A stretch of DNA of 64,000 nucleotides, taken from Thermoflexia bacterium. Lineage in GTDB: Bacteria > Chloroflexota > Anaerolineae > B4-G1. Below the pieces are notes generated by a model. It was not told the DNA's origin, did not search any database, and worked only from the letters and a program-made list of their open reading frames with translations. Both the position numbers and the translations under genes were made by a program. Positions 35,859-55,244 of the stretch are shown here, piece by piece (within the stretch, counting starts at the first letter, position 1; every line of letters begins with the position of its first letter). The DNA is taken from contig DUEK01000002.1 in assembly GCA_011192155.1 (NCBI GenBank), positions 12,388 to 76,387 on the forward strand, given 5' to 3'.

Positions 35859-38357
35859 ATGAGTGAGACCTCACTTGAGGAATATAGACAATTGGTGGAA
35901 AAGCAGGGATGGGCGTTGATGGACATCGTCCAATCCGTGGCTCTGGGCGACATGGACGCAAAGGTTGAGATCCCGGAGGGGATCGAAGTGCTTTCCGAGT
36001 TGGCCGTCGGCGTGGAGATGATGATTGATGATCTTCGTGAGATGTTGGCCGAGCAGGAGCGTGCTGGGGCGGAGTTGGCACGCCGCGCCCTGCAACTTTC
36101 TACCGCTGCCGAGGTCTCCCGCGCTTCCTCCTCCATCCTTCGCCTGGATGAGCTTCTTCCCCAGGCAGTGGAGTTGATCCGCGACCGTTTCAACTTTTAC
36201 TACGTCGGCATTTTCCTGTTGGACGAGGGAGGACAACGTGCGGTGCTGCAGGCCGGCACAGGCGAGGCGGGTCGTCAGATGTTGGAAGCGGGGCATGCAT
36301 TGGAGGTGAGCGATACCTCAATGATTGGTGGGTGCGTCCTACACAAAGAGGCGCGCATCGCGCTGGACGTGGGAGAGGAACCGGTACGTTTCAATAACCC
36401 ATTCCTGCCAGACACACACTCAGAGATGGCGTTGCCGCTGCTCAGCCTGAGCGAGCCCGTTGGCGCGATGACCATTCAGAGCACCAAGATGGCCGCTTTT
36501 AGCGAGGGGGACGTGGCGGTGTTGCAGACGATGGCCGACCAACTCGCCACTGCCATCGCCAACGCCCGCTTGTTCGAACAAACTCAGGCTACCCTGAGCT
36601 ATGCCGAGGCGCTCTACGAGGGCAGCGAGCGGGTGGTGCGTGCCACGACCATAGACGACGTTCTGCAAGCGCTGGTTCACTCAACCTTGTTGCAGCGACT
36701 GACCCGCAGCACTATTAATCTCTTTGATCGCCCATGGGGCGACGAGCGCCCCGAGTCTATGACGGTTGTGGCAGCCTGGGAGCGTGATGCAGCGTCAGCA
36801 GCGCCTGAGGGCAAAAGATTGTCCGTTTCTGTCGGCGTCCGCCACATGCTGGATCAGTTTCCGGCCACGCACTGGTTTGACCGGGATGAGCCGCGCATCG
36901 TGCGGGATATTGCCACAGACGAGCACATAGACGAGCGCACCCGCATCCTGTTCGCGGAGCAGCTTGGCCTGCAGAGCATGATGATTTTTCCCCTGGTTGC
37001 GGGCGAGCAGTGGATCGGTGTTCTCGCGGCGCAAGGTAACGTCGCGCTGGATGTAGGCGAAGCCGAGATTCGCCAGATCACCGCTCTGACCGAGCAGTCC
37101 GCTGCTGTGATTCAGAGCTTGCGATTGCTCCAAGAAGCCCAGACTCGCGCTCACCGCGAGCAGGCCCTGCGCGAGATTGCCGCCGTTGTTGCCGCTAGTA
37201 CAGACCTGGTGGCAGGTTTGCCCGCTATCACTGAGCACTTGTGTCAACTGATCCCCTTGGATGTACTGACCCTGGCTACCTACACCCCCGGCGAGCCGGA
37301 GTATACGCTCTTTGCCTCTCCCAATATGAGGGATAGCGAAGCGGCCCCTTCCAATATGAGGGATAGCGAAGCGGCCCCTTCCAATATGAGGGATAGCGAA
37401 GCGGCCCCTTCCAATATGAGGGATAGCGAAGCGGCTCTTGGCGCAGAGACGAAGGCCGATCACTTTGCCCGACCCGGCATCTATTTGCCGGTGGAGGGGA
37501 CCTGCCCTGGATGGGTCATTACCCATCGGGAACCCTGGCTGGAGGCGGACATTCGCCAGGAGATGCTATTTTTGGAGGATGAGCAACTTGTCTCTGAGGG
37601 AATAATCTCACGATTGTCTTTGCCGCTGTTGGTTGGGGAGCAGGTTGTCGGCACCATCAACCTGACCAGTACACAACCTAGCGCTTTTACTGAGGCGCAT
37701 CTGCTGTTCCTGCAGCAGGTGGCTGACCAGATGGCGTCGGCCCTGGATCGCTCCCGTCTGCTGCAAGAGACCCGCAGCGCCTTGACCGAGGCCGAGGCCA
37801 CCCACCGCGCCTACCTACAACGTGGCTGGCGTGATTATCTGCGCCAGCAAGAAACGCTGCAACAAGGGGCTTTCCTCTACGATCGGACGCAAGGAGCAAC
37901 CGTGCTGGATGGCTTGGCCGAACCCGTTGCCGGGCTTTGGTTGCCAGAGATGGAGCGCGCTCTGGCTGAAGGACTTGTCGCCGCAACCGGGAACGGTGAC
38001 GACGGGGAGCGACGAACGGGATTGGCTATCCCCATTGTCCTGCGTGGACAGACCATCGGCGTTCTGGGCGTGGATGACCCCGCTGGCGAGCATAGATGGT
38101 CTGAAGACGACCGGGCCGTGATCGAGGCGGTCGGGAGGCAATTGGCCCAAGCGTTGGAGAACGCCCGCTTGCTGGGAGAGACCCAGTTGCGCGCGCAGCG
38201 AGAACGCATTATCGGTGACATCGCCAGCCGGGTTCGCGCCTCTATGGATATGAAGAATATTCTACAGACAACCGTGCGGGAACTGGGCATAGCGCTTGGT
38301 ACCGACCGGGCCTTCATCCGGCTGAACCCAGACACACAGCCATCGGAGAAACCCTAA
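35859..38357 (+). CDS. Soluble degenerate-HAMP / GAF x3-4 receptor-like protein without an output domain (paralogue 9)
   Basis: No TM. HAMP-like remnant 'VALGDMDAKVEIPEGIEVLSELAVGVEMMIDDL'. GAF1 'FNFYYVGIFLLDEGGQRAVLQAGTGEAG'. Further GAFs. A 4x SNMRDSEAAP repeat. Tail 'QLRAQRERIIGDIASRVRASMDMKNILQTTVRELGIALGTDRAFIRL'. The stop lies inside a palindromic repeat. Confidence 0.85.
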   Translation: MSETSLEEYRQLVEKQGWALMDIVQSVALGDMDAKVEIPEGIEVLSELAVGVEMMIDDLREMLAEQERAGAELARRALQLSTAAEVSRASSSILRLDELLPQAVELIRDRFNFYYVGIFLLDEGGQRAVLQAGTGEAGRQMLEAGHALEVSDTSMIGGCVLHKEARIALDVGEEPVRFNNPFLPDTHSEMALPLLSLSEPVGAMTIQSTKMAAFSEGDVAVLQTMADQLATAIANARLFEQTQATLSYAEALYEGSERVVRATTIDDVLQALVHSTLLQRLTRSTINLFDRPWGDERPESMTVVAAWERDAASAAPEGKRLSVSVGVRHMLDQFPATHWFDRDEPRIVRDIATDEHIDERTRILFAEQLGLQSMMIFPLVAGEQWIGVLAAQGNVALDVGEAEIRQITALTEQSAAVIQSLRLLQEAQTRAHREQALREIAAVVAASTDLVAGLPAITEHLCQLIPLDVLTLATYTPGEPEYTLFASPNMRDSEAAPSNMRDSEAAPSNMRDSEAAPSNMRDSEAALGAETKADHFARPGIYLPVEGTCPGWVITHREPWLEADIRQEMLFLEDEQLVSEGIISRLSLPLLVGEQVVGTINLTSTQPSAFTEAHLLFLQQVADQMASALDRSRLLQETRSALTEAEATHRAYLQRGWRDYLRQQETLQQGAFLYDRTQGATVLDGLAEPVAGLWLPEMERALAEGLVAATGNGDDGERRTGLAIPIVLRGQTIGVLGVDDPAGEHRWSEDDRAVIEAVGRQLAQALENARLLGETQLRAQRERIIGDIASRVRASMDMKNILQTTVRELGIALGTDRAFIRLNPDTQPSEKP
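37321..37440 (+). repeat. 30-nt tandem repeat, 4 copies, divergent family member (read as SNMRDSEAAP)
   Basis: CCAATATGAGGGATAGCGAAGCGGCCCCTT is repeated four times, the last copy diverging. It shares AGCGAAGCGGC(C/T)CC with the ppk copy at 51993-52031. Confidence 0.85.
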
Positions 38358-38372
38358 AGGTTTTCTGAAACA
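38346..38372. repeat. Palindromic repeat (GGTTTTCTGAAAC-centred) containing the stop codon of paralogue 9
   Basis: GAGAAACCCTAAAGGTTTTCTGAAAC, with TAA at 38355-38357 inside the arm. Its reverse complement nearly matches 55218-55244. Confidence 0.65.
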
Positions 38373-38410: not shown

Positions 38411-41400
38411 ATGGCAAAGGCAAGTGATAAGCGAAAAACTAGCGCGCAACTGATTGAAGAGTTGCAGGAGCCAGCGGAGATGCCATGTGAGAGCGTGGAG
38501 CGTCTGAAGGTTCTGTTAGAATCCGTGCCGAGTGGGATTGTGGTGATTGACGCTGAAACGCACGAGATCGTTGCCGCCAACCCTGCCACTATCGAAATGC
38601 TCGGCGCTCCCCTGGAGCAGGTGATTGGTTCTGTGTGCCACAACTATATTTGTCCGGCGGAGAAGGGACGCTGTCCCATCACTGACCTCGGACAGATGGT
38701 GGACAAAGCGGAGCGAGTGTTGCTCACGCCCGACGGCGAGCGCGTGCCGATTCTAAAGACAGTGGCTTCCGTGATGCTGAATGGCCGTGAGCATTTGATC
38801 GAGAGCTTTGTGGACATCACCGAGCACAAACAAACAGAGCGTGCGTTGCGAAAGAGCGAGGAAAAATACCGAGTCATTCTCGATAGTATTGAAGAAGCAT
38901 ATTACGAGGTTGACCTGGCCGGGAATTTCACATTCTTTAACGACGCGCTGTGCGCGATGCTGGGGTACACCAGAGACGAGTTGATGGGCGCGAACTACCG
39001 GCAGTACACGGGCGATGAGAACACCGAGAGAGTGTACCAGACCTTCAACACGGTCTATCGGACAAAGGAACCGGCAGCGCTATTTGATTGGGAGATTATT
39101 AGAAAAGATGGGACCAACAAGTTGGTCGAGGCGTCTGTATCTCTGATGACTGACCCGGTAGGGGACGAGCCTCTCGGTTTCCGGGGTATTGTGCGCGATG
39201 TCACTGAGCGCGCCCGAAGCGAAGTGATTCGTGCGCGGACGGAGGCCGAGATCGTCAAGCTCAACAGCGAGTTGACCACTCTGAACAGGATCGGTCAAGC
39301 CCTTATCTCTGCTTTGAACATGGAGGAGACGCTGACCATTATCACTGAGCGTGTGTCCCACTTGATGGGTGTGGCGGCGGCCTCGGTGGTCCTTCACGAC
39401 GAGGCCCAGGGCGATTTGTATTTCGCCGCGGCATCTGGCGAGGGCGCGGATTTTGTATTGAGCGCCCGGTTTGGGCTGGGGCAAGGGATCGCAGGCTGGG
39501 TTGTCCAGCACGGCGAAGCGGCGATAGTGCCGGATGTATCGCAGGACGAGCGCTTTTTCGACGATTTGGACAAAAGGAGCGGCCTGACCACGCGTTCAAT
39601 TCTGTGCGTCCCCTTGCAGGCCAAAGGACAGGTGATTGGCGCTATCGAGGTGATGAATAAGAAGGCGGGGGACTTTGACCAGGAGGACTTGCGGTTTCTG
39701 ACTTCGCTGGCAGCGCCGGCGGCCACCGCCATCGAGAACGCCCGCCTGTTTGAGCAATCGCAGGCCTTCGCTCAAGACCTGGCCGTGCTGAACGAGTTGA
39801 GTCAGGCCCTCACCGCCCGCCTGAGCGTGGAGGAGGTGTTGGAGGAGGCGTACCGGCAGATCGCTCGCTTGGTAGATACGACCAACTTTTACATCGGACT
39901 CTACGACCAGGAGAAAGATGAGGTGGCTATTTCGTTTATGGTCTCTAAATCGGAGATTGACCGGCAGATTACGGTCATTCCTGCGGCTCATGGTTTCACC
40001 GGCTACATCATTCGCAATCGCACCAGCGTGCTCGTCAAGGAGAACGTGGCCGAGTGGTTGGAGGAGAAAGGGATTGAAATGGTGGGCGACCCTGCTTGTT
40101 CCTGGCTGGGAGTGCCGCTGCTCGTCGGCGATCAGGTGTTGGGGGTGATGGCGGTTCAGAGCTACACCACCCCCTGTCTCTATGGCGAACACGACCTGGA
40201 TCTGCTGATGGCCATCGCCGGCCCGATGGCCATCGCCATCCAGAACGCCCGGTTGTACGAGCAGGCGCAGCACGAAATTGGAGAGCGCAAGCAAGCGGAG
40301 GCGGAGGTGCGGCGGCGAGCGGAGCAAGCCGCGCTGACCTACGAAGTGGGCCAGCGCGTGAGCGGCGAGTTGGGGCTGGGCGAACTGCTAGCTGAAATAG
40401 TTACCGTTGTGCGTGATGCCTTTGATTACTATGGCGTGATGCTGCTGCTTGAGGAAGAAACCGGAAGACTCACACCTGATCAAGGGGAAGCGAAACGACT
40501 GACTTTACAATCTATTGCAGGCGGCTATGCCGATGTTTTTCCATCAGACCTTGAAATTGCTGTTGGAGAAGGAATGATAGGACATGCGGCGGCGAGCGGC
40601 AAATCTCAAATCAGCAACGATGTCAGCCAGAACCCCTATTACGCGCGCAAGGCGGAGGAGGAAACAAAGTCGGAGCTTGCCGTACCTATCAGGAGTGGAC
40701 GTAAACTCATTGGCGTGCTCGATCTGCAGAGCGATGAATTGGATGCTTTCGACGAGACCGACGTGATGCTGATGGAGACGCTGGCCGACCAGATCGGTGC
40801 GGCGATTGGGAACGCCCGCCTGTACGAAGAAGCCCAACGGCGGTTGCGAGAGCAGACCATGCTCTTTGACGTCAGTCAGCGCCTCGCCGATACCCCTTTG
40901 CAGGTCGACGAGATCGCCAAAGTCGCCGCCCGCCAGTTCACAGAGGTGATGGAGGCGGCAGAGTGCTCTCTCTCCTTGCTCGATCCCCAGGGAGATGCGC
41001 TACAAACTCTGGCGGACTTTGTGACCAAAGATGGGATCATTCTCCAGAACGATGAACAAGAGGAGGAATCGTTTGCCCTATCGGATTATCCGGCCACCGC
41101 CCGCGTGATGGAGACGCGGCAGCCGTTGGTGGTGCAGGCCAGCGACCCCGGCGCCGACCCAGATGAGCTGGCCTATATGCGCCAACATGAGATCGCCACG
41201 CTGGCTATTGTCCCTCTAGTGGCCAAAGGCCAGGCAGTGGGCGTCATAGAGATAGTGATGTGGGAAGAGCACCACTACACGGCGGAGTGGCTCAACTTGG
41301 CGATGACGTTGGCGAATCAGATAGCGGGGGCGCTGGAAAACGCGCGGCTGTACGAGGAAATCCAACGAGAGCTGACCGAGCGCAAGCGGATGGAAGAAGT

Positions 41401-44400
41401 GTTGCAAGAAACACACGAGGAGCTAGAAAAATACACGACCATCCTGGAGCGTCAGACCGCCAGGCTTCGTGTGGGAGCCGAGGTGGCCCGCGAGGTCTCT
41501 GCTATCCTCGATGTGCATCAACTTCTCGACGAGACAGTACGTCTCATCTCCGATGAATTTGGCTTTTACCACGCCGGCGTCTTTATGGTGGGCGATCTGG
41601 GCGAGTATGCTATCTTGCGCGCTTCCTCTTCTGAGGGCGGGCGTCGTATGCTGGAGCGGGGTTATAGAGTGCCGGTTGACGCGCGACCAGAGCCGCCAGA
41701 CGCGAGCGGCATCGTGGGCTATGTTGCGGCGACGGGCGAATATCGCATCGCCCTAGATGTGGGCGAGAATGTCGCGACGCTCCCCTCTGATCGGAGAGGA
41801 GCCGTTTCTTTCAATAACCCCGACCTGCCTGATACTCGCTCCGAAATATGCCTTCCGCTGAGAATGCACGGTCGCACCATCGGCGTGTTGGATATTCAGT
41901 CTGCTCAAGAGGCTGCCTTCTCCGAGAGCGATATGGCGGGCTTTCAGACACTGGCCGACCAATTGGCCGTCTCTATAGAGAACGCTCGCCTGGTGGAGCG
42001 CACGGAGGACCAGTTGAGCGAAATGGGTCGCCTCTACGGTGAATACAGCGCCGCTGCCTGGGCCGACCTGCTGTCGCCAGAGCGTCCGAGGGGTTACATC
42101 TATGATCGCGTTGATGTCCTGCCGGTCATGGACTCGCCGTCCCCGACGCTCGACTTGGCCCCAGCGCGCGGCGAATCGGAAACGACAGGCTCAATGCTGA
42201 CTATGCCGCTCAAGCTGCGCGGCCAGACCATCGGCGTTCTGGGCGTTCAGGAAAGTGACGGCGTTCGCGAATGGTCGCCCGAAGAAGTCGCTATTGTCGA
42301 GGCGGTGAGCGACCAGGTAGCCATAGCGCTGGATAGCGCCCGCCTGTTCGGCGAGGCTCGCACCCACGCTGCGGAGATGGTCGTGTTGAACGAATTAGCC
42401 CAGTCCCTCACCGCCCGCCTGACCGTGGAGGAGGTGCTGGAAGAGACCTATCGGGGTGTCTCTCGGTTGATGGATACCACCAACTTTTACATTGGCCTCT
42501 ACAACCCCGAGTTAGATAGTGTTTCGTTCCCGTTGGCTTTTGAGCATGGCCAAGCAGCGAACTGGCGACCGCGCAGGCTGAGTTCAGGTCTTACAGAGCA
42601 TATCATTCGCAGCAGGCAGCCATTGCTCGTGCGAGAGGGAGTATCTGAACGGATGGAAGAGTTGGGGATTGAGATGATTGGAGCGCCTGCTCTTTCTTGG
42701 CTAGGCGCGCCGCTGTTGGTCGGCGACCGGGTGCTAGGGGTGATGGCCATTCAGAGTACGACCACTCCCCGCGCCTACGGCAAGCATGAGCAAGATTTAC
42801 TGACGGCTGTCGCTAGCCAGACGGCCATTGCCCTGCAGAGCGCCAACTTGTTCCACGAGACTCAACGGAGGGCGACGCAGTTGGCCGCCGCCGCCGAGGT
42901 CGCCCGGGATGCCACCGCTATCTTGGAGGTAGACCAGTTGCTAGACGAGACGGTGCATCTCATCTCCGAACAGTTCGGCTATTACCACGCCGGCGTCTTT
43001 CTCCTGGATGAACAGGACGAGTACGCCGTTTTGCAAGCCGCCTCCTCCGAGGGCGGGCGGCGGATGTTGGAACGGGGGCACAGATTAAAGGTCGGTAAGG
43101 TTGGCATCGTTGGTTACGCTGCGGCGACGGGAGAACCTCGTGTCGCCCTGGACGTGGGGCAGGACGAGGTACACTTTGCCCACGACGATCTCCCCGATAC
43201 CCATTCAGAGATGGGATTGCCGCTAAAAGTGCGCGAGCAAGTGATCGGTGTGCTGGATGTTCAATCTGAGCAGGTCGCTGCCTTTTCTGAGGATGACGTG
43301 TCGGCCTTGCAAACGATGGCCGATCAGTTGGCCACCGCTATCGCCAACGCTCGCCTGTTCCAAGAGACCCGGTCCGAGGCCCAGCGTCGCGCTCTCATCA
43401 ACGAGATGCTCCAGGCTGCCTCCACGTCGCTGAACCCGGAAGAGTTGCTCCACCAGGCTGGAGAGGTTATCTCTCAGCGTTTGGAGTCGCCCTCCGCGAT
43501 CTTTACCTGGGATGCGGCGGAGGAGATACTCTGTACTGTCGCCGTCCACGATTCTAAAGCTGCCGATGTCCCATTGCCTGAAGCGTTTCGAGAAATGACT
43601 CGCGTGATAAACCCCGCCCTCTTTGAGGCGGTGGGGAAGCGCCGCACCAGCATCTTGGAAGTGACATCTTCTGATCAGGAGGAAGCAACACGCTTTGCTG
43701 GCGTGAGCGGCCCACTGGTCGCTACGGCTAAACGGAACCAGGCGCAATCTGTTATTTACGTTCCTTTGGTCTCCCGCGATCAGGTGCTGGGTGTGCTCGG
43801 CATTGGGAGGCTTGAGGATCAGCCGCTCGTGAACGTCGAATTCATCGAGCTTTTGGCCGCCAACCTGAGCGTGGCTGTGGAAAACGCCCGCCTGTACCAG
43901 GGGGCGGTGCAAACCGCCGAGCGGTTGACAGAGGTGGACCGACTCAAGAGCCAGTTCCTAGCTAACATGTCTCATGAACTGCGCACGCCGCTCAACTCTA
44001 TCATTGGCTTCTCCCGCGTCATTCTCAAGGAGATTGACGGCCCGCTCACCGATATGCAGCGCACCGATCTGCAAGCCGTCTACAACAGCGGGCAGCACTT
44101 GTTGGGCCTGATCAACGATATCCTGGAAGTGGCCAAGATAGATTCTGGCAAGATGGAGTTGGTTTCTGAAGTGGTGAACTTGCAAGACATCATCAAGGGC
44201 GTCATGTCCACCGCTATCGCGCTGGTCAAAGACAAGTCTGGCGTCAAGTTGCAGCAGGTCGTCCCTCAAGATTTGCCGACGATAATGGGCGATACACGGC
44301 GCATCCGTCAAGCGATTCTCAATCTTGTCTCTAACGCTGCCAAGTTCACCACGGAAGGCTTCATTCGCGTGGAGGTTGAGGTTGCAGACAACGAAGTTGT

Positions 44401-45463
44401 CATTTCTGTGGCCGATAGCGGTATTGGTATCCCGCCGGATAAGATTGACATGATCTTTGAGCCTTTCACCCAAGCTGATTCTTCCACTACTCGCGAGGCC
44501 GGAGGCACAGGATTGGGCCTTTCTATCACCAGTAGCTTTGTCAAGATGCACGGTGGTCGTATGTGGGTGGAGAGTGAGGCGGGAGAGGGTTCCACTTTCT
44601 ACATGACGTTGCCCATCCATGGAGCTTCTCTGTCCGAGGAAGAGGCGGGGAAGGAGCAACTGGAGCCGGAGCCTGAACTTGAACAAAAAACTGTTCTTTG
44701 TGTAGAGGACGACGACGGGGTTGTCACCCTCTTTCGCCGCTACTTGAACAATCAAGGCTACAACGTCGTTGGCCTCACCGACAGCACGGTGGCGGTGGAA
44801 CGGGCACGAGAGCTACAGCCGTTTGCCATCACGCTGGATGTGATGATGCCCGGCAAGGATGGCTGGCAGGTCATTCAAGAGTTGAAGGCCGATCCCGAAA
44901 CCTGTGACATTCCTGTTATCATGTGTACTATTGTGGGGGAGAAGGAGTATGGCATCAGTTTGGGCGCGGTCGATTACTTGCTCAAGCCAATTCTCGAACA
45001 TGACCTGCTGGCTGCGCTGGGTCGCCTGGACTGGGCGGGGGGCCAACACCTGGTGTTGGTGGTGGACGACCAGCCGGAGGATCGAAACCTGCTGCGCCGG
45101 ATGCTCGAGGGCCAAGAGGGGTACGAGGTTGTGGAGGCGGGCGGTGGCCAGGAGGCCATCGCCGCGATCCAACAAACACCGCCCCACGTTATCATCCTGG
45201 ATCTTATGATGCCGAACGTGGATGGGTTCGCCGTTTTGGAGGCGGTTAAAACGGACGAGAATACTCGCTCTATTCCTATCATTGTTGTAACTGCCAAGGA
45301 CCTGACCACAGAAGAGCGAGAGGCCCTCAGTAGTGGAGTGGAGGCATTGCTGCAAAAGGGGATCTTTGAGCAGCACGAGCTACTGGCAGACGTGGCAGAG
45401 GCGCTGAACCGATTAGGAGACAACGCAGGAGGTGAATCAAGATATGAAGCAGACCCCACATAA
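38411..45463 (+). CDS. Giant hybrid sensor histidine kinase (2 PAS, about 9 GAF, HisKA, HATPase_c, 2 REC), 2350 aa
   Basis: PAS1 carries 'CHNYICPAEKGRCP'. PAS2 'YRVILDSIEEAYYEVDLAGNFTFFNDA'. Serial GAFs, two of receptor-paralogue type ('FGFYHAGVFMV', 'FGYYHAGVFLLDEQDEYAVLQAASSEGG'). H-box 'MSHELRTPLNSIIGFS'. 'GGTGLGLSITSSFVKMHGG'. REC 'VLCVEDDDG...TLDVMMPGKDG' and 'VLVVDDQPED...ILDLMMPNVDG'. Confidence 0.9.
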   Translation: MAKASDKRKTSAQLIEELQEPAEMPCESVERLKVLLESVPSGIVVIDAETHEIVAANPATIEMLGAPLEQVIGSVCHNYICPAEKGRCPITDLGQMVDKAERVLLTPDGERVPILKTVASVMLNGREHLIESFVDITEHKQTERALRKSEEKYRVILDSIEEAYYEVDLAGNFTFFNDALCAMLGYTRDELMGANYRQYTGDENTERVYQTFNTVYRTKEPAALFDWEIIRKDGTNKLVEASVSLMTDPVGDEPLGFRGIVRDVTERARSEVIRARTEAEIVKLNSELTTLNRIGQALISALNMEETLTIITERVSHLMGVAAASVVLHDEAQGDLYFAAASGEGADFVLSARFGLGQGIAGWVVQHGEAAIVPDVSQDERFFDDLDKRSGLTTRSILCVPLQAKGQVIGAIEVMNKKAGDFDQEDLRFLTSLAAPAATAIENARLFEQSQAFAQDLAVLNELSQALTARLSVEEVLEEAYRQIARLVDTTNFYIGLYDQEKDEVAISFMVSKSEIDRQITVIPAAHGFTGYIIRNRTSVLVKENVAEWLEEKGIEMVGDPACSWLGVPLLVGDQVLGVMAVQSYTTPCLYGEHDLDLLMAIAGPMAIAIQNARLYEQAQHEIGERKQAEAEVRRRAEQAALTYEVGQRVSGELGLGELLAEIVTVVRDAFDYYGVMLLLEEETGRLTPDQGEAKRLTLQSIAGGYADVFPSDLEIAVGEGMIGHAAASGKSQISNDVSQNPYYARKAEEETKSELAVPIRSGRKLIGVLDLQSDELDAFDETDVMLMETLADQIGAAIGNARLYEEAQRRLREQTMLFDVSQRLADTPLQVDEIAKVAARQFTEVMEAAECSLSLLDPQGDALQTLADFVTKDGIILQNDEQEEESFALSDYPATARVMETRQPLVVQASDPGADPDELAYMRQHEIATLAIVPLVAKGQAVGVIEIVMWEEHHYTAEWLNLAMTLANQIAGALENARLYEEIQRELTERKRMEEVLQETHEELEKYTTILERQTARLRVGAEVAREVSAILDVHQLLDETVRLISDEFGFYHAGVFMVGDLGEYAILRASSSEGGRRMLERGYRVPVDARPEPPDASGIVGYVAATGEYRIALDVGENVATLPSDRRGAVSFNNPDLPDTRSEICLPLRMHGRTIGVLDIQSAQEAAFSESDMAGFQTLADQLAVSIENARLVERTEDQLSEMGRLYGEYSAAAWADLLSPERPRGYIYDRVDVLPVMDSPSPTLDLAPARGESETTGSMLTMPLKLRGQTIGVLGVQESDGVREWSPEEVAIVEAVSDQVAIALDSARLFGEARTHAAEMVVLNELAQSLTARLTVEEVLEETYRGVSRLMDTTNFYIGLYNPELDSVSFPLAFEHGQAANWRPRRLSSGLTEHIIRSRQPLLVREGVSERMEELGIEMIGAPALSWLGAPLLVGDRVLGVMAIQSTTTPRAYGKHEQDLLTAVASQTAIALQSANLFHETQRRATQLAAAAEVARDATAILEVDQLLDETVHLISEQFGYYHAGVFLLDEQDEYAVLQAASSEGGRRMLERGHRLKVGKVGIVGYAAATGEPRVALDVGQDEVHFAHDDLPDTHSEMGLPLKVREQVIGVLDVQSEQVAAFSEDDVSALQTMADQLATAIANARLFQETRSEAQRRALINEMLQAASTSLNPEELLHQAGEVISQRLESPSAIFTWDAAEEILCTVAVHDSKAADVPLPEAFREMTRVINPALFEAVGKRRTSILEVTSSDQEEATRFAGVSGPLVATAKRNQAQSVIYVPLVSRDQVLGVLGIGRLEDQPLVNVEFIELLAANLSVAVENARLYQGAVQTAERLTEVDRLKSQFLANMSHELRTPLNSIIGFSRVILKEIDGPLTDMQRTDLQAVYNSGQHLLGLINDILEVAKIDSGKMELVSEVVNLQDIIKGVMSTAIALVKDKSGVKLQQVVPQDLPTIMGDTRRIRQAILNLVSNAAKFTTEGFIRVEVEVADNEVVISVADSGIGIPPDKIDMIFEPFTQADSSTTREAGGTGLGLSITSSFVKMHGGRMWVESEAGEGSTFYMTLPIHGASLSEEEAGKEQLEPEPELEQKTVLCVEDDDGVVTLFRRYLNNQGYNVVGLTDSTVAVERARELQPFAITLDVMMPGKDGWQVIQELKADPETCDIPVIMCTIVGEKEYGISLGAVDYLLKPILEHDLLAALGRLDWAGGQHLVLVVDDQPEDRNLLRRMLEGQEGYEVVEAGGGQEAIAAIQQTPPHVIILDLMMPNVDGFAVLEAVKTDENTRSIPIIVVTAKDLTTEEREALSSGVEALLQKGIFEQHELLADVAEALNRLGDNAGGESRYEADPT
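40478..40500 (+). repeat. 30-nt-family repeat, single copy (read as DQGEAKRL) inside a GAF of the giant kinase
   Basis: GATCAAGGGGAAGCGAAACGACT. A 10-aa insert 'TPDQGEAKRL' lies between 'EETGRL' and 'TLQSIAGG', flanked by GACTCAC / GACTGAC. Confidence 0.6.
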
Positions 45464-47141
45464 TCAAAGGGAAGCAACGCGACATAAATTCGAGCACCAG
45501 GTTTGGTTAGAGTGTGCGGGCTGTGGACATCGCGTCTTGTTTACCCACCCACTGAAAGCGTGTGAGAAGTGTGGTGGGCAATGGCTCGACGCGAGTTATG
45601 ACTATGACAGCGTCCGCGAGCAGTGGCCTGCTGTGTTGAGTGAGCGACCCTTTGACATGTGGCGCTACAGGGAGCTTCTTCCCCTGCGCGACGACACCAA
45701 TAAAGTGACCATGGGTGAGGGAGGAACGCCGCTGCTCCACGCCACCAACTTGGGGCTGATGCTCGGCGCTCCGCACATCTACTTCAAGGACGAGCGGCAA
45801 GGGCCGACCGGTTCATTCAAAGACCGGCAGGCGGCGTTGGCCATCTCGGTGATGAAAGAGCACGACATGACCGAGGCAGTTGTTGCCTCTACCGGCAATG
45901 TCGCCATCTCCTACTCAGCCTACTCTGCGCTGGCCGGTATCAAGATGTGGACCTTTCTCACCAGCCTGGTGCCCCCTGAGAAAATGCGCGAGGTAGCGCT
46001 CTATGGGAGCGAGGTCATCAAAGTGACTGCCTCTTATGATCAGACCAAGAAAGTGGCGGCGGATTTTGCGGAGCGTAAGGGCATTTTTCTCGACCGAGGG
46101 ATTCGGAGTATAGCGGCCCGCGAGGCTATGAAAACCGTCGCTTTCGAGATGGCCGAGCAATTGCCCATGTTGATTGGCGACGGCGATACCCTCTGGCGCG
46201 CGCCCGATTGGTACATCCAGGCCACCAGTGGGGGGATGGGGCCGGTGGGCGTGTGGAAAGCTTACGAGGAGATGGTGAGACTGGGGCTGGTGGACAAGAT
46301 GCCCAAGCTGGCCTGCATCCAGGTCGCCGGCTGCGCGCCGATGGTTCACTCCTTCAACAAGGGCCTGGACGAGGCCGAGCCGGTCCTCAACCCGCAGACC
46401 TTGGTCATCACCATCGCCACCGGCAGCCCTGGCCCGGCCTACACTTTTCTGTCTCGCGTCATTCGAGAGCACGGGGGAGCCTTTGAGGCCGTGACTGACG
46501 AAGAGGTCTTTCGCGCTATGCACGTGATGGCCAAGTTGGACGGCGTCTCGATGGAGACGGCGGCCGCGACGGCCTTTGCTGGGTTGTTCAAGTTGCTCAA
46601 TAAGGGTATAATAAAGCGTGATGAGGTCGTGGTCGTCAATTGCTCCGGACATACCTTCCCGGTCGAAAAGCACTTGCTGGGCGATGAGTGGGCGCGAACG
46701 GTTGATGTGCCCAAGAGAGAGGACGCTGTCGAGGAGGGATTGCTAGGCTCTCTGGAACAACTCGACGGTCGGGTGCAGAGCATTGTCATCATTGAGGATA
46801 ATCCCCAGGCCACGTTGTTGTTGCGGCGTATCTTGCAGACACGAGGGGAGTACCGGATATTTGAGGCTCACGACGGAATCGCAGGCTTGGAGTTGGTGCG
46901 CCGCGAGCGGCCCGATTTGATCTTGCTAGACCTGATGATGCCGGGTATGGATGGCTTTGAAGTGCTAGATGCGCTCAAGGCCGACGAAAACTTGAGCGAC
47001 GTGCCGGTGATTGTCATCACGGCCAAGGAGTTGACGATTGCCGAACGGCAGCGTCTCAGCGGGAGGATTGACAAGTTAATGCAAAAAGGCTCTTTTACTG
47101 ACGAGGAGTTGCTGACAGAAATCCTAAAGCGGGCGGCATGA
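45444..47141 (+). CDS. Threonine-synthase-family PLP enzyme fused to a C-terminal response-regulator receiver domain
   Basis: AGGAGG at 45427-45432, then ATG at 45444. N-terminal zinc ribbon 'CAGCGHRV...CEKCGG'. PLP-lysine motif 'GPTGSFKDRQA'. 'ASTGNVAIS'. 'ATSGGMGP'. C-terminal REC 'IVIIEDNPQA...LILLDLMMPGMDG...VIVITAKE...LMQKG'. Confidence 0.8.
   Translation: MKQTPHNQREATRHKFEHQVWLECAGCGHRVLFTHPLKACEKCGGQWLDASYDYDSVREQWPAVLSERPFDMWRYRELLPLRDDTNKVTMGEGGTPLLHATNLGLMLGAPHIYFKDERQGPTGSFKDRQAALAISVMKEHDMTEAVVASTGNVAISYSAYSALAGIKMWTFLTSLVPPEKMREVALYGSEVIKVTASYDQTKKVAADFAERKGIFLDRGIRSIAAREAMKTVAFEMAEQLPMLIGDGDTLWRAPDWYIQATSGGMGPVGVWKAYEEMVRLGLVDKMPKLACIQVAGCAPMVHSFNKGLDEAEPVLNPQTLVITIATGSPGPAYTFLSRVIREHGGAFEAVTDEEVFRAMHVMAKLDGVSMETAAATAFAGLFKLLNKGIIKRDEVVVVNCSGHTFPVEKHLLGDEWARTVDVPKREDAVEEGLLGSLEQLDGRVQSIVIIEDNPQATLLLRRILQTRGEYRIFEAHDGIAGLELVRRERPDLILLDLMMPGMDGFEVLDALKADENLSDVPVIVITAKELTIAERQRLSGRIDKLMQKGSFTDEELLTEILKRAA
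45462..45485 (+). repeat. 30-nt-family repeat core, single copy, spanning the giant-kinase stop and the ThrC-REC N-terminus (read as NQREATR)
   Basis: AATCAAAGGGAAGCAACGCGAC immediately overlaps or follows the TAA at 45461-45463. Confidence 0.6.
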
Positions 47142-48493
47142 GTAGCCAAGATAAAATGAAGCGTATCAAGATTCTTTATGTAGAGGATGATCCATCCAGT
47201 GCTACACTGGTGCGTCGCTTGCTCGAAAGCGAGGGTTACCAGGTTGTACATGCCGCAGATGGCCTGGCTGCCATAGAGGCCGCCAGGCGCGAAATACCGG
47301 CCCTGATTTTGATGGACATAAACATCGGCGGCCTGGATGGCTACGAGGTGACCACTCGCTTGCGATCCATCGAGGAAGTGGAGGGGGTGCCTATCGTGGC
47401 CGTCACTGCCGCCACGTTGGATGGCGACCGAGAGCGGGCGCTCATTGCCGGGTGTACCGGCTATATCGCCAAGCCGATTGATGTGGATAAATTCCCGGAA
47501 CAGGTATACTCCTTCCTGCAAGGGACGAAGGAAGAGATCGAGTCTGCGGAGGAAAAGAGCGAGTATCTGGTCGAGTACAGCCGCAGTTTGGTGAATCGGT
47601 TGGAGACCAAGATCCGTGAATTGGAGGGAGCGCACGCCGAGTTACAGCGGATTGAGAAAGTAAAGTCGGATTTCATCATCTTGGCCAGCCACGAATTGCG
47701 CACGCCGATGACGTGTGTCTACGGTTACATCCAGATGCTGCTCGCTAACCCTGATATTCCCGGTGATGCCGATGAAGAGGGCAGCGCCCGCAACCTGCTT
47801 CATCGCATCGCCGCTGCCACGCATCGGCTTGGCCTGGTCTTTGACGAAATTCGCAACGTTTCCCTCATTGACGCCGATCGCTTAGACTTGGCCTGGGAGC
47901 CGGTGCCTCTGAAATCTCTGATCTATAACGTGGTGGGTAACTTGCAGAAAGCTGGTCCAACGCGGGATCTGCGATTCGAGTTTGAGGGAGTAGAAGAGTT
48001 GCCGGTGCTCTATGGGGATGATAAGCGCTTGCATCAAGCGCTATGGAACGTCGTTAGCAATTCGATAAAGTATACGCCCAATGGCGGGTGTATACGTATC
48101 GTAGGCCATCAAATTCAGGATACGGTACATCTCTCTATCCAGGATAGCGGCGTGGGTATTCCGCAGGCGGAGCAGGAGCACATATTCGATCACTTTTACG
48201 TGCTGGAAGATACGAGCCTTCACCACTCGAGTAAGACTGCGTTTAAAGGGGGCGGGTTAGGACTGGGGCTTACTGTGGCGCGAGGCATCATTGAAACCCA
48301 CGGCGGCAAGATCTGGGTAGAAAGCGAAGGGTACGACGAGGAGCAGTTACCGGGTAGCGTCTTTCACATTCTCCTGCCGTTGCGTAAAACTTCTTTCTCG
48401 CTAACTGATGCGTCTATTCCAGCTTCCATTCCAGAGGAGCATTACCCTCTGCCAGACGCATCCCCGGATCGCGCGCCATCAGAATCATACTGA
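47138..48493 (+). CDS. Hybrid histidine kinase (N-terminal REC, HisKA, HATPase_c)
   Basis: ATGA overlap with the upstream gene. REC 'ILYVEDDPSSA...LILMDINIGGLDG...IVAVTAA...GYIAKP'. H-box 'ASHELRTPMT'. 'NSIKYTPNGG'. 'DSGVGIP'. 'GGGLGLGLTVARGIIETHGG'. Confidence 0.9.
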   Translation: MSSQDKMKRIKILYVEDDPSSATLVRRLLESEGYQVVHAADGLAAIEAARREIPALILMDINIGGLDGYEVTTRLRSIEEVEGVPIVAVTAATLDGDRERALIAGCTGYIAKPIDVDKFPEQVYSFLQGTKEEIESAEEKSEYLVEYSRSLVNRLETKIRELEGAHAELQRIEKVKSDFIILASHELRTPMTCVYGYIQMLLANPDIPGDADEEGSARNLLHRIAAATHRLGLVFDEIRNVSLIDADRLDLAWEPVPLKSLIYNVVGNLQKAGPTRDLRFEFEGVEELPVLYGDDKRLHQALWNVVSNSIKYTPNGGCIRIVGHQIQDTVHLSIQDSGVGIPQAEQEHIFDHFYVLEDTSLHHSSKTAFKGGGLGLGLTVARGIIETHGGKIWVESEGYDEEQLPGSVFHILLPLRKTSFSLTDASIPASIPEEHYPLPDASPDRAPSESY

Positions 48494-49331
48494 CTCCCAG
48501 CAGCCCGCTCCCAAGCCACTGTACGAGCGTTAACCGCTCGCCCAGCAATAGGAAAGCCAGCACTAGGCTGACGATGAGTTCCAGCAGGCTGGCCATCGCC
48601 GTCTCAACTCCCCCCAGCCGTTCTAGTGCAAAGAACATTGTCAGCCGAGATAGGGCCGTCGTCAGGCCCAGCGCCAATATGGCGCTCCAGCCGGTGCTCG
48701 CGATAGGTTCCAGCGGCTGCGATTGCACCGCCCGCGCCACGCCGACCACGCAGGCCATAGTCGTCAGGATGTAGAGCGCCGCTTTGCGCGCCGGCACGTC
48801 GGCCAGCACCCACTGCCCCAACACCAGATGCCAGCCGTAGGTCGCCGCTGAGGCGATCATCAACGTCACCCCCAGCCAGTTCAATACCCCAGGTTCCGCG
48901 CGCGTTAGCAAGTAGATGCCTAGCGTGGAGAGCGCGAGCCGCGACATAGTGAGGCGCGTCAACGGTTGCCCGGCAGCAAAGAGGAACAGCACCACCCACA
49001 GCGGGTAGAGAGTGTTGAGTAGAGAGGCGCGGGAGGCATTTACGTGCAAGAGACCCGTGTAGTAGAACAGCGACCCAAAGCCATTGACCGCGCCCACACC
49101 GATGCACCCAATGAGGTCTCGCCAGGAGATGGCGATCTCGCGGCGCCAAAAGATCAAAAAAACTAACCAGAGGAGCAACGCTGCCGCCACTGTGCGAAAG
49201 GCCACCAGCGTATATGGTGTGACGCCGTTGGCGTAGGCCATCTTGCCTAGAATGGGCGACCAACCCAAGAAAAAACTGGCTGCCACTGTGGCTGTGATCC
49301 CTTGACGTTGTTTGCGGCTTAGATTTGACAT
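48414..49331 (-). CDS. EamA/DMT-family transporter
   Basis: About 10 predicted TM helices in two EamA-like halves. The 3' end overlaps the convergent kinase gene by 80 nt. Confidence 0.7.
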   Translation of the reverse strand: MSNLSRKQRQGITATVAASFFLGWSPILGKMAYANGVTPYTLVAFRTVAAALLLWLVFLIFWRREIAISWRDLIGCIGVGAVNGFGSLFYYTGLLHVNASRASLLNTLYPLWVVLFLFAAGQPLTRLTMSRLALSTLGIYLLTRAEPGVLNWLGVTLMIASAATYGWHLVLGQWVLADVPARKAALYILTTMACVVGVARAVQSQPLEPIASTGWSAILALGLTTALSRLTMFFALERLGGVETAMASLLELIVSLVLAFLLLGERLTLVQWLGSGLLGVSMILMARDPGMRLAEGNAPLEWKLE

Positions 49332-49402: not shown

Positions 49403-49930
49403 ATGACTTTGAGACAAAAACTAATCATCGGCATAGTCTTGGCGCTGGCGGGATTGGCGCTGCGTCCGTTTGGCGCTGGTATCTTGTCCTTGTTCACACC
49501 TGCGCCTCGGGTTGATGTATCCACCGAGTTCGGCCAAACCGCCGGCCCGAAAAGGCCGGCCGAAGCACTCTCGCAGGAAACGTGCCGCTGGGCAGCTGCT
49601 CAAATGCTGGCCCAGGCCGGGCTGGGCGGAACTGCGACGCTGAATCCCGATGGCTTGCTTTGCCTCAATGTTACGTACATTCCCTTGCCAGACGAGACGT
49701 CCGACGCAGCCGCTCAACTGGTCTGGGGGGCCTTTGACGTTGCGCTGGCCTTGCAACAACGCAATTGTGAATTTACCCAGATCGAGGTTGTCATCCTGAC
49801 TCGATGCGATCAATCCGGCGCTCGAATTGAAGCGAGCGTCGGAGCAGCTGACCTAGCGGCCTTTGGCGCGGGCGAATTGAGTGAGGATGAGTTCATCGAG
49901 TGTGTGATGTATACTACTCTTTCTCAATGA
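49403..49930 (+). CDS. Hypothetical membrane-anchored protein
   Basis: ATG at 49403 (M27 of the track ORF) gives an N-terminal TM 'LIIGIVLALAGLALRPFGAGIL'. No recognisable domain. Confidence 0.4.
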   Translation: MTLRQKLIIGIVLALAGLALRPFGAGILSLFTPAPRVDVSTEFGQTAGPKRPAEALSQETCRWAAAQMLAQAGLGGTATLNPDGLLCLNVTYIPLPDETSDAAAQLVWGAFDVALALQQRNCEFTQIEVVILTRCDQSGARIEASVGAADLAAFGAGELSEDEFIECVMYTTLSQ

Positions 49931-51269
49931 CGAACTCCCGGTCAAAGACTTGTTCCAGCAGCAGACCTTTATCCAGCGCTCGCTCTCGCTCCGGTTCTGC
50001 ATACCCGCGCATAGTGCAGCGTGCGATTATCTGCTGAGGTGAAACCTCACACGTGAGATCCTCCACAATGCTGCGGTGGGTGCGATCTAACCCATCGGCC
50101 ACTCGCAGGAGCGCGGCCAATACGGCCACGAGTCGCTGGTCCGCCGGCTCTAGCGCGGCAAAGTGAGCATGTTCATTCTTTGGGAGCGCGCGCCGGTGGT
50201 AACGGGCAATCGAGCCGATGATGAGACGCTCGCGCGCGTCGAAGGGCAGTTGCGTGGCGCCACGGATGATGCGCAGACTGGTCTTGTGATGTCGCCGCTG
50301 TCCTTCGACCCAGCCGATGTCGTGCAACAGAGCGCCGCACTGCAGCCAGAAGCGCTCCTCTGCGCCTAGCTGGTGCAGCAGCCTCAGCTCATCGAACAGC
50401 CGCAGGGCCAGCCGCGTCACTTGATGGGAGTGTTCCACCTCGTAATCGCAGCGCTCCGCCAGCCGGAGCACTGCCTGTAGGCGACGCTCTTCCTCTTGTT
50501 GCAGGGGAGAGATCGAGGCGGGCACTTTCATTATTGTGTCCAGGGCGCGGCCCTGGATCAACATTTGCGCGAACGCCTCCGGCAACCCGTACTCCCGGGT
50601 TGCGGTGACTGCCCCGAGCACATCGTACGCCAACCGAAAATGCTGCACCTGAATGTCTGGTTCGATCTGCAAGATGGCATAGCAGGCGCGCGGATCACCG
50701 TCGTCGGGTCGGCCCACGCTGCCGGTGTTGATGAACCATACCCCCTCCACCTGACGCGCAAAGGGCCGGTGCGAGTGACCACAGATGATCACATCGGCGT
50801 TCGTCGTCTGCGCCAGTTCGCGCAACCGTTTCTTTGGTGTGTCGGAGGTGAGAGTCTCCTCGTTTGAAGCGGGGCTTCCGTGTGTCAGCAAGATGCGCAG
50901 CCCCTCTACCCGCAATTGTCTTTCCTGGGGGAGGGAGCGCAGGTAGTCGTGATTCTCTGGGAAGAGATGGTCAAAAGCCCACCGGAAAGCCAGGAATTTT
51001 TCTGGCCGTTTGCTCTTTTGCCACTTTTTCCTTTTCCGCTCGAATTCTAGTACTTTGAGATCATAGTTGCCCACGATGCTGACTGCCCGCTCTTGCCGCA
51101 GCAACTGGATCACCTCGTTGGGAAATGGGCCGTAGCCGAGCAAGTCGCCAGCGTTCCAAATTGCTTTGACGTTGCGCTGGCGCGCATGCACCACCACTGC
51201 TTCGAGCGCCGGTAGGTTGGCGTGAACGTCCCCGATCAATGCCAACTTTACGGGCGTGTTATTCCTCAC
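49914..51269 (-). CDS. Metallophosphoesterase (MJ0936/YfcE-like) fused to an HD domain (Ppx/GppA C-terminal type)
   Basis: Phosphoesterase motifs 'LIGDVHAN', 'GDLLGYGP', 'LLTHGSP', 'ICGHSH'. HD region 'HSHQVTRLALRLFDEL...LLHDIGW...HHKTS'. The start overlaps the ppk stop by 11 nt. Confidence 0.7.
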   Translation of the reverse strand: MRNNTPVKLALIGDVHANLPALEAVVVHARQRNVKAIWNAGDLLGYGPFPNEVIQLLRQERAVSIVGNYDLKVLEFERKRKKWQKSKRPEKFLAFRWAFDHLFPENHDYLRSLPQERQLRVEGLRILLTHGSPASNEETLTSDTPKKRLRELAQTTNADVIICGHSHRPFARQVEGVWFINTGSVGRPDDGDPRACYAILQIEPDIQVQHFRLAYDVLGAVTATREYGLPEAFAQMLIQGRALDTIMKVPASISPLQQEEERRLQAVLRLAERCDYEVEHSHQVTRLALRLFDELRLLHQLGAEERFWLQCGALLHDIGWVEGQRRHHKTSLRIIRGATQLPFDARERLIIGSIARYHRRALPKNEHAHFAALEPADQRLVAVLAALLRVADGLDRTHRSIVEDLTCEVSPQQIIARCTMRGYAEPERERALDKGLLLEQVFDREFVIEKE

Positions 51270-53460
51270 TATGCCATATCCCCCGATGCTCGATCATCCA
51301 CGATTGAGAGTCTAGCTCAGGCTCACCGGGTTCGGGATGCACCCGCTCGTAGCTGCCATCGGGCAACAATCGCCGGGCCTGTACATTATCTCTCAGGTGA
51401 ATACCCAAAATCTGAGCGCGCACGGCGTCTCGCAAGCGCGCATCCTCCACCGGGAACAATTGTTCCACCCTCCGGTCGAGATTGCGGGGCATCAGGTCGG
51501 CGCTGCCGAGCAGCATCTCGTCCTCGCCTCCGTTGTGAAAGTAGTAGAGGCGGGGGTGTTCCAGGAAGCGGCCCACGATAGAGGTGACGGTGATATTCTC
51601 GCTCACCCTCGGCACGCCGGGCCGCAGGCAGCAGATGCCGCGCACTTGCAGATCAACCTTCACTCCGGCCTGCGAAGCACGGTAGAGCGCCTGGATGCAG
51701 GCCCTATCTACCAGCGCGTTCATCTTGAAAGCCAGGTAGCCGTCCCCGCGCTCTTGGTGCCGCTCGATTTCACGTTCGATGCGATTCAGTATTTCCTTCC
51801 GCATCACGCCTGGAGCCACCAACAGCTTGCGATACTCTTGCTTGGTGGAGTAGCCGGTGAGGGCATTGAACAGATCGGATACATCCGCGCCGATGTCTGG
51901 GTCACAAGTGAAAAAGCCAATGTCCGTGTAGAGGCGGGCGGTGACGTCATTATAGTTGCCGGTGCTCATGTGGACGTAGCGAGTGAGGGTGTCTCCCTCC
52001 CGCTCAAAGGGAAGCGAAGCGGCTCCTTCCCGGCGCACCACCAGGAGGAGCTTGGTGTGCGTCTTGAGTCCCATCACCCCATATACCACATGCACTCCTG
52101 CTTGCTCCAGCGCCCGCGCCCACACAATGTTGTTCTCTTCGTCAAAGCGCGCCTTTAGTTCGACCAACACGGCTACTTGTTTCCCATTCTTGCGCGCTTT
52201 CATCAGCGCGGCCACGATCGGCGAATCCGGGCCGACTCGGTACAACGTCTGCTTGATCGCCAGCACGTTGGGGTCTCGCGCCGCCCGGCGGACGAACTCT
52301 ACCACCGGGTCGAAGCTATCGTAGGGATGGTAGAGCAGGACGTTGCGATGGCGGATTGCGGAAAAGATGTTCTTCTCTGGGGATAGGGGCGGAGGCACAG
52401 ACTGCTGAAAAGGCGAGTCCTTCAGCTCGGGGCGGTTTACGCGAGCCAGATCCACGAGGTCGGCCAGTCCGATGGGGCCATCTACCGTGTAGACCTGATA
52501 GGGCGCCAGGCCAAGATTGGCGATCAGGGTATCGCGCACCCGTTCCGACATGTCGCCGTCTACCTCCAGCCGCACTGCTAAACCAAAATGGCGCATGCGC
52601 ACACTCTCTTGGATGGAAGTCAGCAAGTCTGCGGCTTCATCCTCCTCAATTTCAGGATCGGCATCGCGGGTGACGCGGAAAGGGTAAGCGGCCACGATCT
52701 CCATGCCAGGAAAGAGCATGTCCAGATTAGCGACCACTGCTTCTTCCAGCCACACAAAGTTGCTGGACATTGTTTGCGCCAGTCCCAGGCTTTGATAGTC
52801 GTCGGCTGTTTCTTCGCTGGGGATGCGCAGCAGGCGGGGGAATGTCCCCGGCGCCTTCAGGCGGGCGAACCGCTCCCCGCGCAGGGGATCGTTGATCACC
52901 ACCGCCAAGTTGAGGCTGAGGTTGGAGATGTGAGGAAATGGGTGCCCTGGATCAAAGGCCAGCGGCGTGAGGGTGGGGAATATCTCTTCTCGAAAGTACT
53001 GGCGCAACAGTTTGCACTGCTTGTGCTTCAGATCGCTATAGTTGAGAACTTTTATCCCGGCTTCTCGCAGTTTCGGCAACAGATCATAATGCCAGCAGTC
53101 GTACTGCCGGGATAGCTCCGGGAGCAACTCGCGACGGATGGCGGCCAGTTGCTCGGCCGGCGTCATACCATCCGGTGGGGCTTTCAATGCTCCAGCCGCC
53201 AATTGCCGGCGCAGGCCAGAGACGCGGATCATAAAGAACTCGTCCAGATTGCTGGCAAAGATGGACAGAAACTTGACCCGTTCCAACAGCGGGTGGCGCT
53301 TATCCAGCGCTTCCTCCAGCACTCGATGGTTGAACTGAAGCCAGCTTAACTCGCGATTGATGTAGAGGTGGGGGGCATCCAAACCAACATTGCTCTTGGA
53401 TGTCTCGAGTTGAGCAGAGCGCTTTACTTGTTTCTTCTTTTTCTTTTTCTTTTTTCCCAT
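51259..53460 (-). CDS. ppk: Polyphosphate kinase 1
   Basis: 'ELSWLQFNHRVLEEA', 'GLKTHTKLLLVVRRE', 'YVHMSTGNYN' and 'ARLYTD'. N-terminus 'MGKKKKKKKKQVKR'. Contains a 30-nt-family insert at 51993-52031. Confidence 0.9.
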   Translation of the reverse strand: MGKKKKKKKKQVKRSAQLETSKSNVGLDAPHLYINRELSWLQFNHRVLEEALDKRHPLLERVKFLSIFASNLDEFFMIRVSGLRRQLAAGALKAPPDGMTPAEQLAAIRRELLPELSRQYDCWHYDLLPKLREAGIKVLNYSDLKHKQCKLLRQYFREEIFPTLTPLAFDPGHPFPHISNLSLNLAVVINDPLRGERFARLKAPGTFPRLLRIPSEETADDYQSLGLAQTMSSNFVWLEEAVVANLDMLFPGMEIVAAYPFRVTRDADPEIEEDEAADLLTSIQESVRMRHFGLAVRLEVDGDMSERVRDTLIANLGLAPYQVYTVDGPIGLADLVDLARVNRPELKDSPFQQSVPPPLSPEKNIFSAIRHRNVLLYHPYDSFDPVVEFVRRAARDPNVLAIKQTLYRVGPDSPIVAALMKARKNGKQVAVLVELKARFDEENNIVWARALEQAGVHVVYGVMGLKTHTKLLLVVRREGAASLPFEREGDTLTRYVHMSTGNYNDVTARLYTDIGFFTCDPDIGADVSDLFNALTGYSTKQEYRKLLVAPGVMRKEILNRIEREIERHQERGDGYLAFKMNALVDRACIQALYRASQAGVKVDLQVRGICCLRPGVPRVSENITVTSIVGRFLEHPRLYYFHNGGEDEMLLGSADLMPRNLDRRVEQLFPVEDARLRDAVRAQILGIHLRDNVQARRLLPDGSYERVHPEPGEPELDSQSWMIEHRGIWHSEE
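51993..52031 (+). repeat. 30-nt-family repeat, single copy, antisense to ppk (read as AASLPFEREG)
   Basis: CTCCCTCCCGCTCAAAGGGAAGCGAAGCGG, followed by CTCCTTCCC, which repeats the 5' 9 nt. The unit matches the reverse complement of 34891-34920 at most positions. Confidence 0.8.
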
Positions 53461-55217: not shown

Positions 55218-55244
55218 GGTTTCAGAAAACCCTTAGGGCCTTTT
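55218..55244. repeat. Palindromic repeat (GGTTTCAGAAAACC-centred) containing the stop codon and last codons of adk
   Basis: GGTTTCAGAAAACCCTTAGGGCCTTTT. The reverse complement reads '...EKALRVF*'. Confidence 0.65.

Follow-up and report, generated by a model that had tools for sequence, protein, structure and literature searches.

A threonine synthase-like protein fused to a receiver domain within a histidine kinase gene cluster of Chloroflexota

The ThrC-REC gene and its domains

The window (the whole stretch of DNA analysed, 64,000 nucleotides (nt) of contig DUEK01000002.1 from assembly GCA_011192155.1 of a Thermoflexia bacterium) contains a cluster of signalling genes, and within it a gene that joins an enzyme of the threonine synthase (ThrC) family to a response-regulator receiver (REC) domain. 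The protein, here called ThrC-REC, consists of a Cys4 zinc ribbon, a pyridoxal phosphate (PLP) domain of fold type II, a disordered linker of about 40 amino acids and an intact receiver, in that order. The features of the gene are given below; conservation was scored in 37 family members at 43–88% identity.

45444..47141, + strand: ThrC-REC gene, encoding protein P0001 (565 amino acids); a stop-free frame with Pfam PALP and Response_reg matches and AGGAGG before the ATG
45427..45432, + strand: Shine-Dalgarno-like AGGAGG, 11 nt 5' of the ATG at 45444, from reading of the sequence
45513..45572, + strand: Cys4 zinc ribbon (C24, C27, C40, C43), the four Cys invariant in 37/37 members; weak match to Pfam DUF7129
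45705..46646, + strand: PLP fold-type II (PALP) catalytic domain, residues 88–401; Pfam E-value 3.9e-59
45819–45821, + strand: Schiff-base Lys, K126, aligned to Lys61 of Thermus ThrC and invariant in the family
46650..46766, + strand: inter-domain linker, residues 403–441; predicted local distance difference test score (pLDDT) of 31–39 in AlphaFold 2 (AF2)
46782..47117, + strand: receiver, residues 447–558; Pfam Response_reg E-value 3.6e-20
46929–46931, + strand: phospho-acceptor D496 of the receiver, present in 37/37 members

Counted from the ATG at 45444, the gene overlaps the kinase gene upstream by 20 nt (kinase stop at 45461–45463), and the ATGA at 47138–47141 is both its stop and the start of a REC-kinase gene downstream. 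A preliminary description, made from the DNA alone, had placed the gene between a giant hybrid kinase and a REC-kinase, overlapping both, and this is correct. All of the motifs it quoted are present, those of the enzyme (CAGCG...CEKCGG, residues 24–45; GSFKDRQA, 123–130; TSGGMG, 261–266) as well as those of the receiver (IIEDN, 449–453; LLDLMMPGMDG, 494–504; VITAK, 524–528; QKG, 547–549), and the receiver holds, as had been stated, a complete set of phospho-acceptor residues. The description of the enzyme part as a complete ThrC-type core is right as far as a PLP fold-type II catalytic core is concerned, but the motifs specific to threonine synthase are missing from it.

Across the 37 members there is little or no variation at K126, S149, G151 and N152, in the SGGxG loop or at G402-H403-T404. 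In the receiver, conservation is similar: E/D451 (36/37), D452 (36/37), D496 (37/37), T/S526 (37/37) and K548 (36/37). The linker has two short conserved patches in the family alignment, PVEKHLLGD and EEGLL.SLE.LD. AF2 gives a confident ThrC-like core and receiver, with pLDDT mostly >90 in the PLP domain, and a predicted complex of the PLP domain with the receiver domain scored 0.00.

Conservation and distribution of the fusion

ThrC-REC is one real gene, and its fusion is not an assembly artefact, because independent contigs cross the junction without indels and the fusion is kept in hundreds of species. Contigs from other studies (sediment and hydrothermal-vent runs) cover 45893–46828, 46515–48327 and 46605–46844, gap-free and with at most one mismatch. 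Those crossing nt 46515–46844 (from the last part of the PLP domain through the linker into the receiver) are free of indels. The preliminary description had allowed for a frameshift or mis-assembly merging two separate genes. No point in support of this was found, the same architecture recurs in hundreds of independent assemblies, and the likelihood of such an artefact is negligible.

The database survey for the ThrC-REC architecture that was proposed at that stage shows it to be widespread. Both Pfam domains occur in all of the more than 120 protein clusters at 77–89% identity, and of the 201 genomes sampled from the class, 57 have full-length matches (48–75% identity). When each GTDB species was represented by a single genome, relatives were recovered in at least 571 species; the best 80 of these matches are from Chloroflexota throughout, and include Anaerolineales, Caldilineae, Ardenticatenaceae, Promineifilaceae, Thermoflexus, Longilinea, Aggregatilineales and one Chloroflexia metagenome-assembled genome (MAG). 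The ThrC-REC fusion and the same gene order are found in other Chloroflexota classes also. Clustering at 50% leaves only about six clusters of full-length fused proteins. Hard-to-study Anaerolineae of sediments, hot springs and activated sludge carry the module in abundance, and Thermoflexus and Longilinea are among the named genera that have it.

One part of the receiver (46832–46958, the DLILLDLMMPGMDG part) shows a contig depth up to ∼100-fold higher in all four metagenome runs, with many loose ends. This stretch is matched at the DNA level by receiver genes of other organisms.

Relationship to threonine synthase

Judged by its sequence, ThrC-REC is a member of the ThrC superfamily and not a canonical threonine synthase. 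Like ThrC (EC 4.2.3.1), it has a PLP fold-type II core, a Schiff-base Lys (K126) within an SFKDR motif and an STGN loop, and its N-terminal Cys4 ribbon is shared with PRK08197 (NF006050, the zinc-ribbon type) and with cysteate synthase. The best family models are ThrC equivalogs, yet the score is under the cut-off of every one (NF006050, 266 vs 303; NF004170, 183 vs 421; TIGR00260, 143 vs 167). Unlike ThrC, it ends in a receiver, is encoded in a kinase operon instead of with hom/thrB, has the NSxNPxR / EGQKT / GNAGN motifs replaced, and coexists with ThrC-family genes that exceed the cut-off.

The motif changes were seen by alignment with solved enzymes. STGNT, NSxNPxRxEGQKT and GNAGN are common to the four bacterial ThrCs compared (M. 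tuberculosis 2D1F, Aquifex 2ZSJ, Thermus 1UIM/1V7C and B. subtilis 6CGQ), and the canonical ThrCs of Anaerolineae also keep STGNT, NSxNPxR and GNAGN. The Arabidopsis enzyme (1E5X) has the variants STGDT, NSLNSLRLEGQKT and GNLGN. At the same places ThrC-REC reads STGNV, DRGIRSIAAREAMKT and SGGMG. Five Thermus residues, T88, N154, S155, R160 and N188, which we take to hold the substrate phosphate in the analogue complex 1V7C, correspond in ThrC-REC to V153, R218, G219, A225 (with R226 adjacent) and G263, so that the substrate-phosphate pocket of ThrC is not retained. A new pocket is conserved, with D or E at D217 in 37/37 members, G219 in 36/37, and R or K at position 221 in 36/37 and at position 226 in 31/37. 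The conserved D217 and the two basic residues point to a pocket that can still bind an anionic group. With the substrate pocket of this ThrC-derived subfamily rebuilt, its members may turn out to catalyse a new PLP reaction.

Gene content is in keeping with these differences. In all 30 relatives searched, a ThrC-family gene over the TIGR00260 cut-off is present besides the 555–590-amino-acid ThrC-REC frame, and there are at least six ThrC-family groups in Anaerolineae, two of which keep every canonical motif. No ThrC over the cut-off was found in the present MAG, which is only 83% complete. In the same MAG thrB was not found and hom is located elsewhere in the genome; at the loci examined here, neither hom nor thrB was ever seen adjoining the ThrC-REC gene. 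The gene is therefore not the sole or housekeeping copy in a threonine-pathway context, but part of a kinase operon. A housekeeping ThrC identity was rejected on the grounds of the scores below cut-off, the changed motifs and the coexisting ThrC-family genes of the relatives.

Cysteate synthase (TIGR03844; CapA2 of Alistipes, PDB 9K3C) provides a precedent for a ThrC-family zinc-ribbon enzyme with changed chemistry, and its structure aligns over 418 columns with a root-mean-square deviation of 3.0 (Foldseek). ThrC-REC is nevertheless not a member of this family, as it reaches 102.8 bits against a cut-off of 324.9, and 41 bits against 9K3C, and this identity was also rejected. In the Foldseek ranking, threonine synthases come first and CapA2 is 18th. 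The ESM Atlas labels the protein only as 'threonine synthase family', while its relatives are named 'threonine synthase' (as used by JGI) or 'PLP-dependent enzyme' in the databases. The name 'threonine synthase' is probably wrong for these genes, which matters for pathway reconstruction from MAGs.

The preliminary description had left a choice between a bona fide ThrC and a paralogue. Scores, motifs and the phylogeny (see below) indicate a paralogue that is neither bona fide ThrC nor cysteate synthase. What stands of the earlier account is the single gene, the conserved fusion, the phospho-acceptor set and the signalling operon; it had not noted the EamA transporter as a conserved partner, the second paralogue in this genome or the lost substrate-phosphate motif of ThrC.

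The only homoserine dehydrogenase gene found in the MAG (contig C115, L007:10-2052) lies directly 3' of a GAF histidine kinase gene. With the iPGM-type homoserine kinase model, this MAG scores only 159 bits (cut-off 446), and, as stated, thrB was not found.

Phylogeny and a second copy

In a maximum-likelihood tree of 61 Anaerolineae ThrC-family cores, the REC-fused sequences make up one side of a long branch (length 1.5; support 100 in the Shimodaira-Hasegawa-like approximate likelihood ratio test, SH-aLRT), and are split into clade A, with the present gene, and clade A2 (support 98 each). In a second tree, to which representatives from a library of 1.8 billion proteins were added, the fused clade (support 94) has the unfused P0131, P0132 and P0137 as sisters (joint support 97). 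Together, the fused clade and its sisters belong to a broader subfamily of unfused proteins (support 100) that is distinct from both canonical ThrC and PRK08197. As the fused clade is nested among unfused relatives, a single fusion event is the simplest history. Of the unfused sisters, P0131, on a 1.5-kb contig, has no orthologue among 301 Chloroflexota genomes, and no Pfam matches were found among the neighbours of a P0137-like gene on contig L167.

The present genome carries a second copy (contig C46, L004:4874-8255), an A2 paralogue of 557 amino acids with 48% identity, which has two single-receiver genes and a gene for a GNAT acetyltransferase after it. A2 takes the form of one ThrC-REC-REC protein (703–715 amino acids) in other lineages, where GAF kinases and further receivers flank it.

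Three other observations concern the enzyme family and its genes. In one family of the class (L057:6207-11862 and L058:5752-9617), a true PRK08197-type 'threonine synthase' gene (∼580 bits) directly adjoins ThrC-REC-REC, and the pair is flanked by GAF kinases. The ThrC-like proteins P0239, P0249 and P0269 of an unfused clade are ∼610–620 amino acids long, and P0239 ends in a LeuA allosteric/dimerisation domain (Pfam), another regulatory fusion within this enzyme family. An ornithine/aspartate carbamoyltransferase gene is found just 3' of ThrC-REC and EamA on a metagenome contig (L168:1-3185), and a carbamoyltransferase gene also occurs 3.5 kb after the A2 paralogue (L004:10036-10956), which may be coincidence.

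Neighbouring kinases and transporter

The neighbours of ThrC-REC in the window are the following, as identified with Pfam.

38411..45463, + strand: upstream hybrid histidine kinase, 2350 amino acids (PAS, nine GAF, HisKA, HATPase, REC, REC)
47138..48493, + strand: downstream kinase, REC-HisKA-HATPase, its start overlapping the ThrC-REC stop
35859..38357, + strand: four-GAF protein without a kinase core, the last in an upstream run of GAF-only genes
48414..49331, − strand: EamA/DMT-family transporter, 305 amino acids, convergent with the REC-kinase gene

The upstream kinase appears to be soluble, with no clear membrane segment in a hydropathy scan. The gene context was counted in 80 named loci, the denominators being the loci with enough flank. 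A co-directional kinase adjoins ThrC-REC in 76/80. An upstream kinase is present in 53/64, and 52 of these 53 have GAF domains and 40 are hybrid kinases; a downstream REC-kinase is present in 49/70. In the recurrent order, a GAF kinase precedes ThrC-REC, and a REC-kinase and an EamA-type transporter often come next; many related loci have GAF-only genes 5' of the kinase. Thirteen of the 53 upstream kinases are without a receiver of their own, which makes ThrC-REC their obvious cognate partner. Scans of the loci with Pfam revealed neither an Hpt domain nor a DNA-binding regulator among the conserved neighbours.

The receiver itself has the acidic pocket, Asp, Thr/Ser and Lys of response regulators, scores 72.6 bits with Response_reg (cut-off 30.2), and is encoded beside a histidine kinase. 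Among the local receivers, its closest relative is the terminal REC2 of the upstream kinase (43% identity, 105 bits), with which it shares TAK..LT and a QKG that replaces the usual K-P.

The EamA gene lies within 2.6 kb of ThrC-REC in 44/59 loci, and full-length EamA orthologues (35–86% identity) are found beside ThrC-REC in 53/80. No second copy of this gene was detected in the genome by tblastn, and the NCBIfam match of the transporter carries a generic name only.

Proposed function

The known end points of two-component systems are transcription, motility and second-messenger enzymes. On balance, ThrC-REC is best read, from its domains and gene context, as a response regulator with a specialised PLP enzyme as its output. 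The signalling pathway would then probably switch an amino-acid-type reaction directly, since hundreds of Chloroflexota species retain the fusion together with a neighbouring GAF sensor kinase and membrane transporter. The N-terminal part would be a catalytically competent PLP enzyme with a zinc ribbon, apparently descended from the threonine synthase family but now a subfamily of its own, its substrate pocket remodelled. D496 of the receiver would be phosphorylated by the GAF sensor kinase encoded next to it, and possibly by the downstream REC-kinase too. Phosphorylation would alter the catalytic activity, most likely via receiver-driven changes of oligomeric state, a route that is favoured because the linker looks flexible. 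The enzyme may catalyse an elimination or a replacement at the beta or gamma position of an amino acid whose leaving or side group is anionic, and its substrate or product may cross the membrane through the EamA-type carrier that is inherited with it. If true, this would be a widespread pathway that couples sensing, directly and at the post-translational level, to metabolism of the amino-acid type or to a secreted metabolite. Searches of the literature turned up no account of a ThrC-REC protein.

Other response regulators with enzymatic outputs (the CheB methylesterase, the PleD/WspR diguanylate cyclases, RpfG with HD-GYP, and RssB/PP2C) likewise have a receiver fused to an enzyme, and ThrC-REC resembles them in its complete phospho-acceptor set and in the likely kinase gene that adjoins it. 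Their outputs, however, are signalling or second-messenger enzymes, whereas that of ThrC-REC is a PLP amino-acid enzyme; it also differs in having Gly, not Pro, after the conserved Lys. Several points weigh against such an output role. The receiver is C-terminal to the enzyme, the reverse of most response regulators; with the linker disordered, no structural path from receiver to active site is visible in the AF2 model; and the likeness of the receiver to the terminal REC2 of the kinase also fits a phosphate sink. The transporter is found in 49 of the 57 class genomes with ThrC-REC vs 12 of the 144 without, but such co-occurrence counts overstate the support, as related genomes are not independent samples.

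The protein could also work in the opposite direction, with the PLP domain as input and the receiver as the working part, so that binding or turnover of an amino acid controls the gain or loss of phosphate by the receiver. ThrC-REC would then serve as a sink or shuttle for phosphate, gated by a metabolite and in competition with the receivers of the kinase itself. The relationship to REC2 and the C-terminal placement of the receiver argue for this, as do the lack of Hpt domains and DNA-binding regulators among the conserved neighbours and the extra receivers that surround, or are fused to, the sister clade A2. We nevertheless regard it as unlikely: the PLP domain keeps its full catalytic set, the high identity across families fits an enzyme selected for catalysis, a metabolic output better suits the co-inherited transporter, and ThrC-REC looks like the terminal regulator wherever the upstream kinase is without a receiver. 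A true threonine synthase isozyme, converting O-phosphohomoserine to threonine with its flux tuned by two-component phosphorylation, would agree with threonine synthases being the best family and structure matches, with the name given to relatives by JGI and with the lack of a ThrC over the cut-off in this MAG; however, the MAG is incomplete and every relative searched has another such gene. This isozyme is rather improbable given that all equivalog cut-offs are missed, that the five presumed phosphate-binding positions are all altered (reading V, R, G, A, G), that the gene is not beside hom or thrB, and that many genomes have two REC-fused paralogues.

In a more far-reaching extension of the response-regulator reading, which seems distinctly improbable, three components (the GAF kinase, the ThrC-like enzyme gated by its receiver, and the EamA carrier) would make up a small-molecule signalling circuit that Chloroflexota operate as a self-contained unit. 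The enzyme would make or destroy an amino-acid-derived signal, its synthesis switched by phosphorylation; the carrier would export or import the signal, and the GAF arrays might sense it. In the quorum-sensing pairs CqsA/CqsS and LqsA/LqsS, the gene for a PLP-dependent autoinducer synthase neighbours that for a sensor kinase. The same linkage of a PLP enzyme gene to a sensor kinase gene is seen here, and small-molecule signalling is therefore a possible logic. CqsA is an acyl-CoA transferase of type I PLP fold, with no fused receiver and a membrane-bound sensor, whereas the sensor at the ThrC-REC locus is a soluble multi-GAF kinase. Such a circuit, if true, would represent new autoinducer-like chemistry in filamentous bacteria.

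Other features of the locus

The convergent 3' ends of the REC-kinase and EamA genes overlap by 80 nt (48414–48493). Next to the module (49914–53460, − strand) lie genes for a metallophosphoesterase fused to an HD / Ppx-GppA domain III, and for the polyphosphate kinase Ppk1. The same pair follows the module in a MAG of the same genus (L079) and was not seen in more distant loci. A 33-nt element at 38339–38371, just upstream of the kinase start (38411), has an inverted copy 16.8 kb downstream (55219–55251; 79% complementary), and the two bracket the block of kinase, ThrC-REC, REC-kinase, EamA, phosphoesterase and Ppk1 genes.

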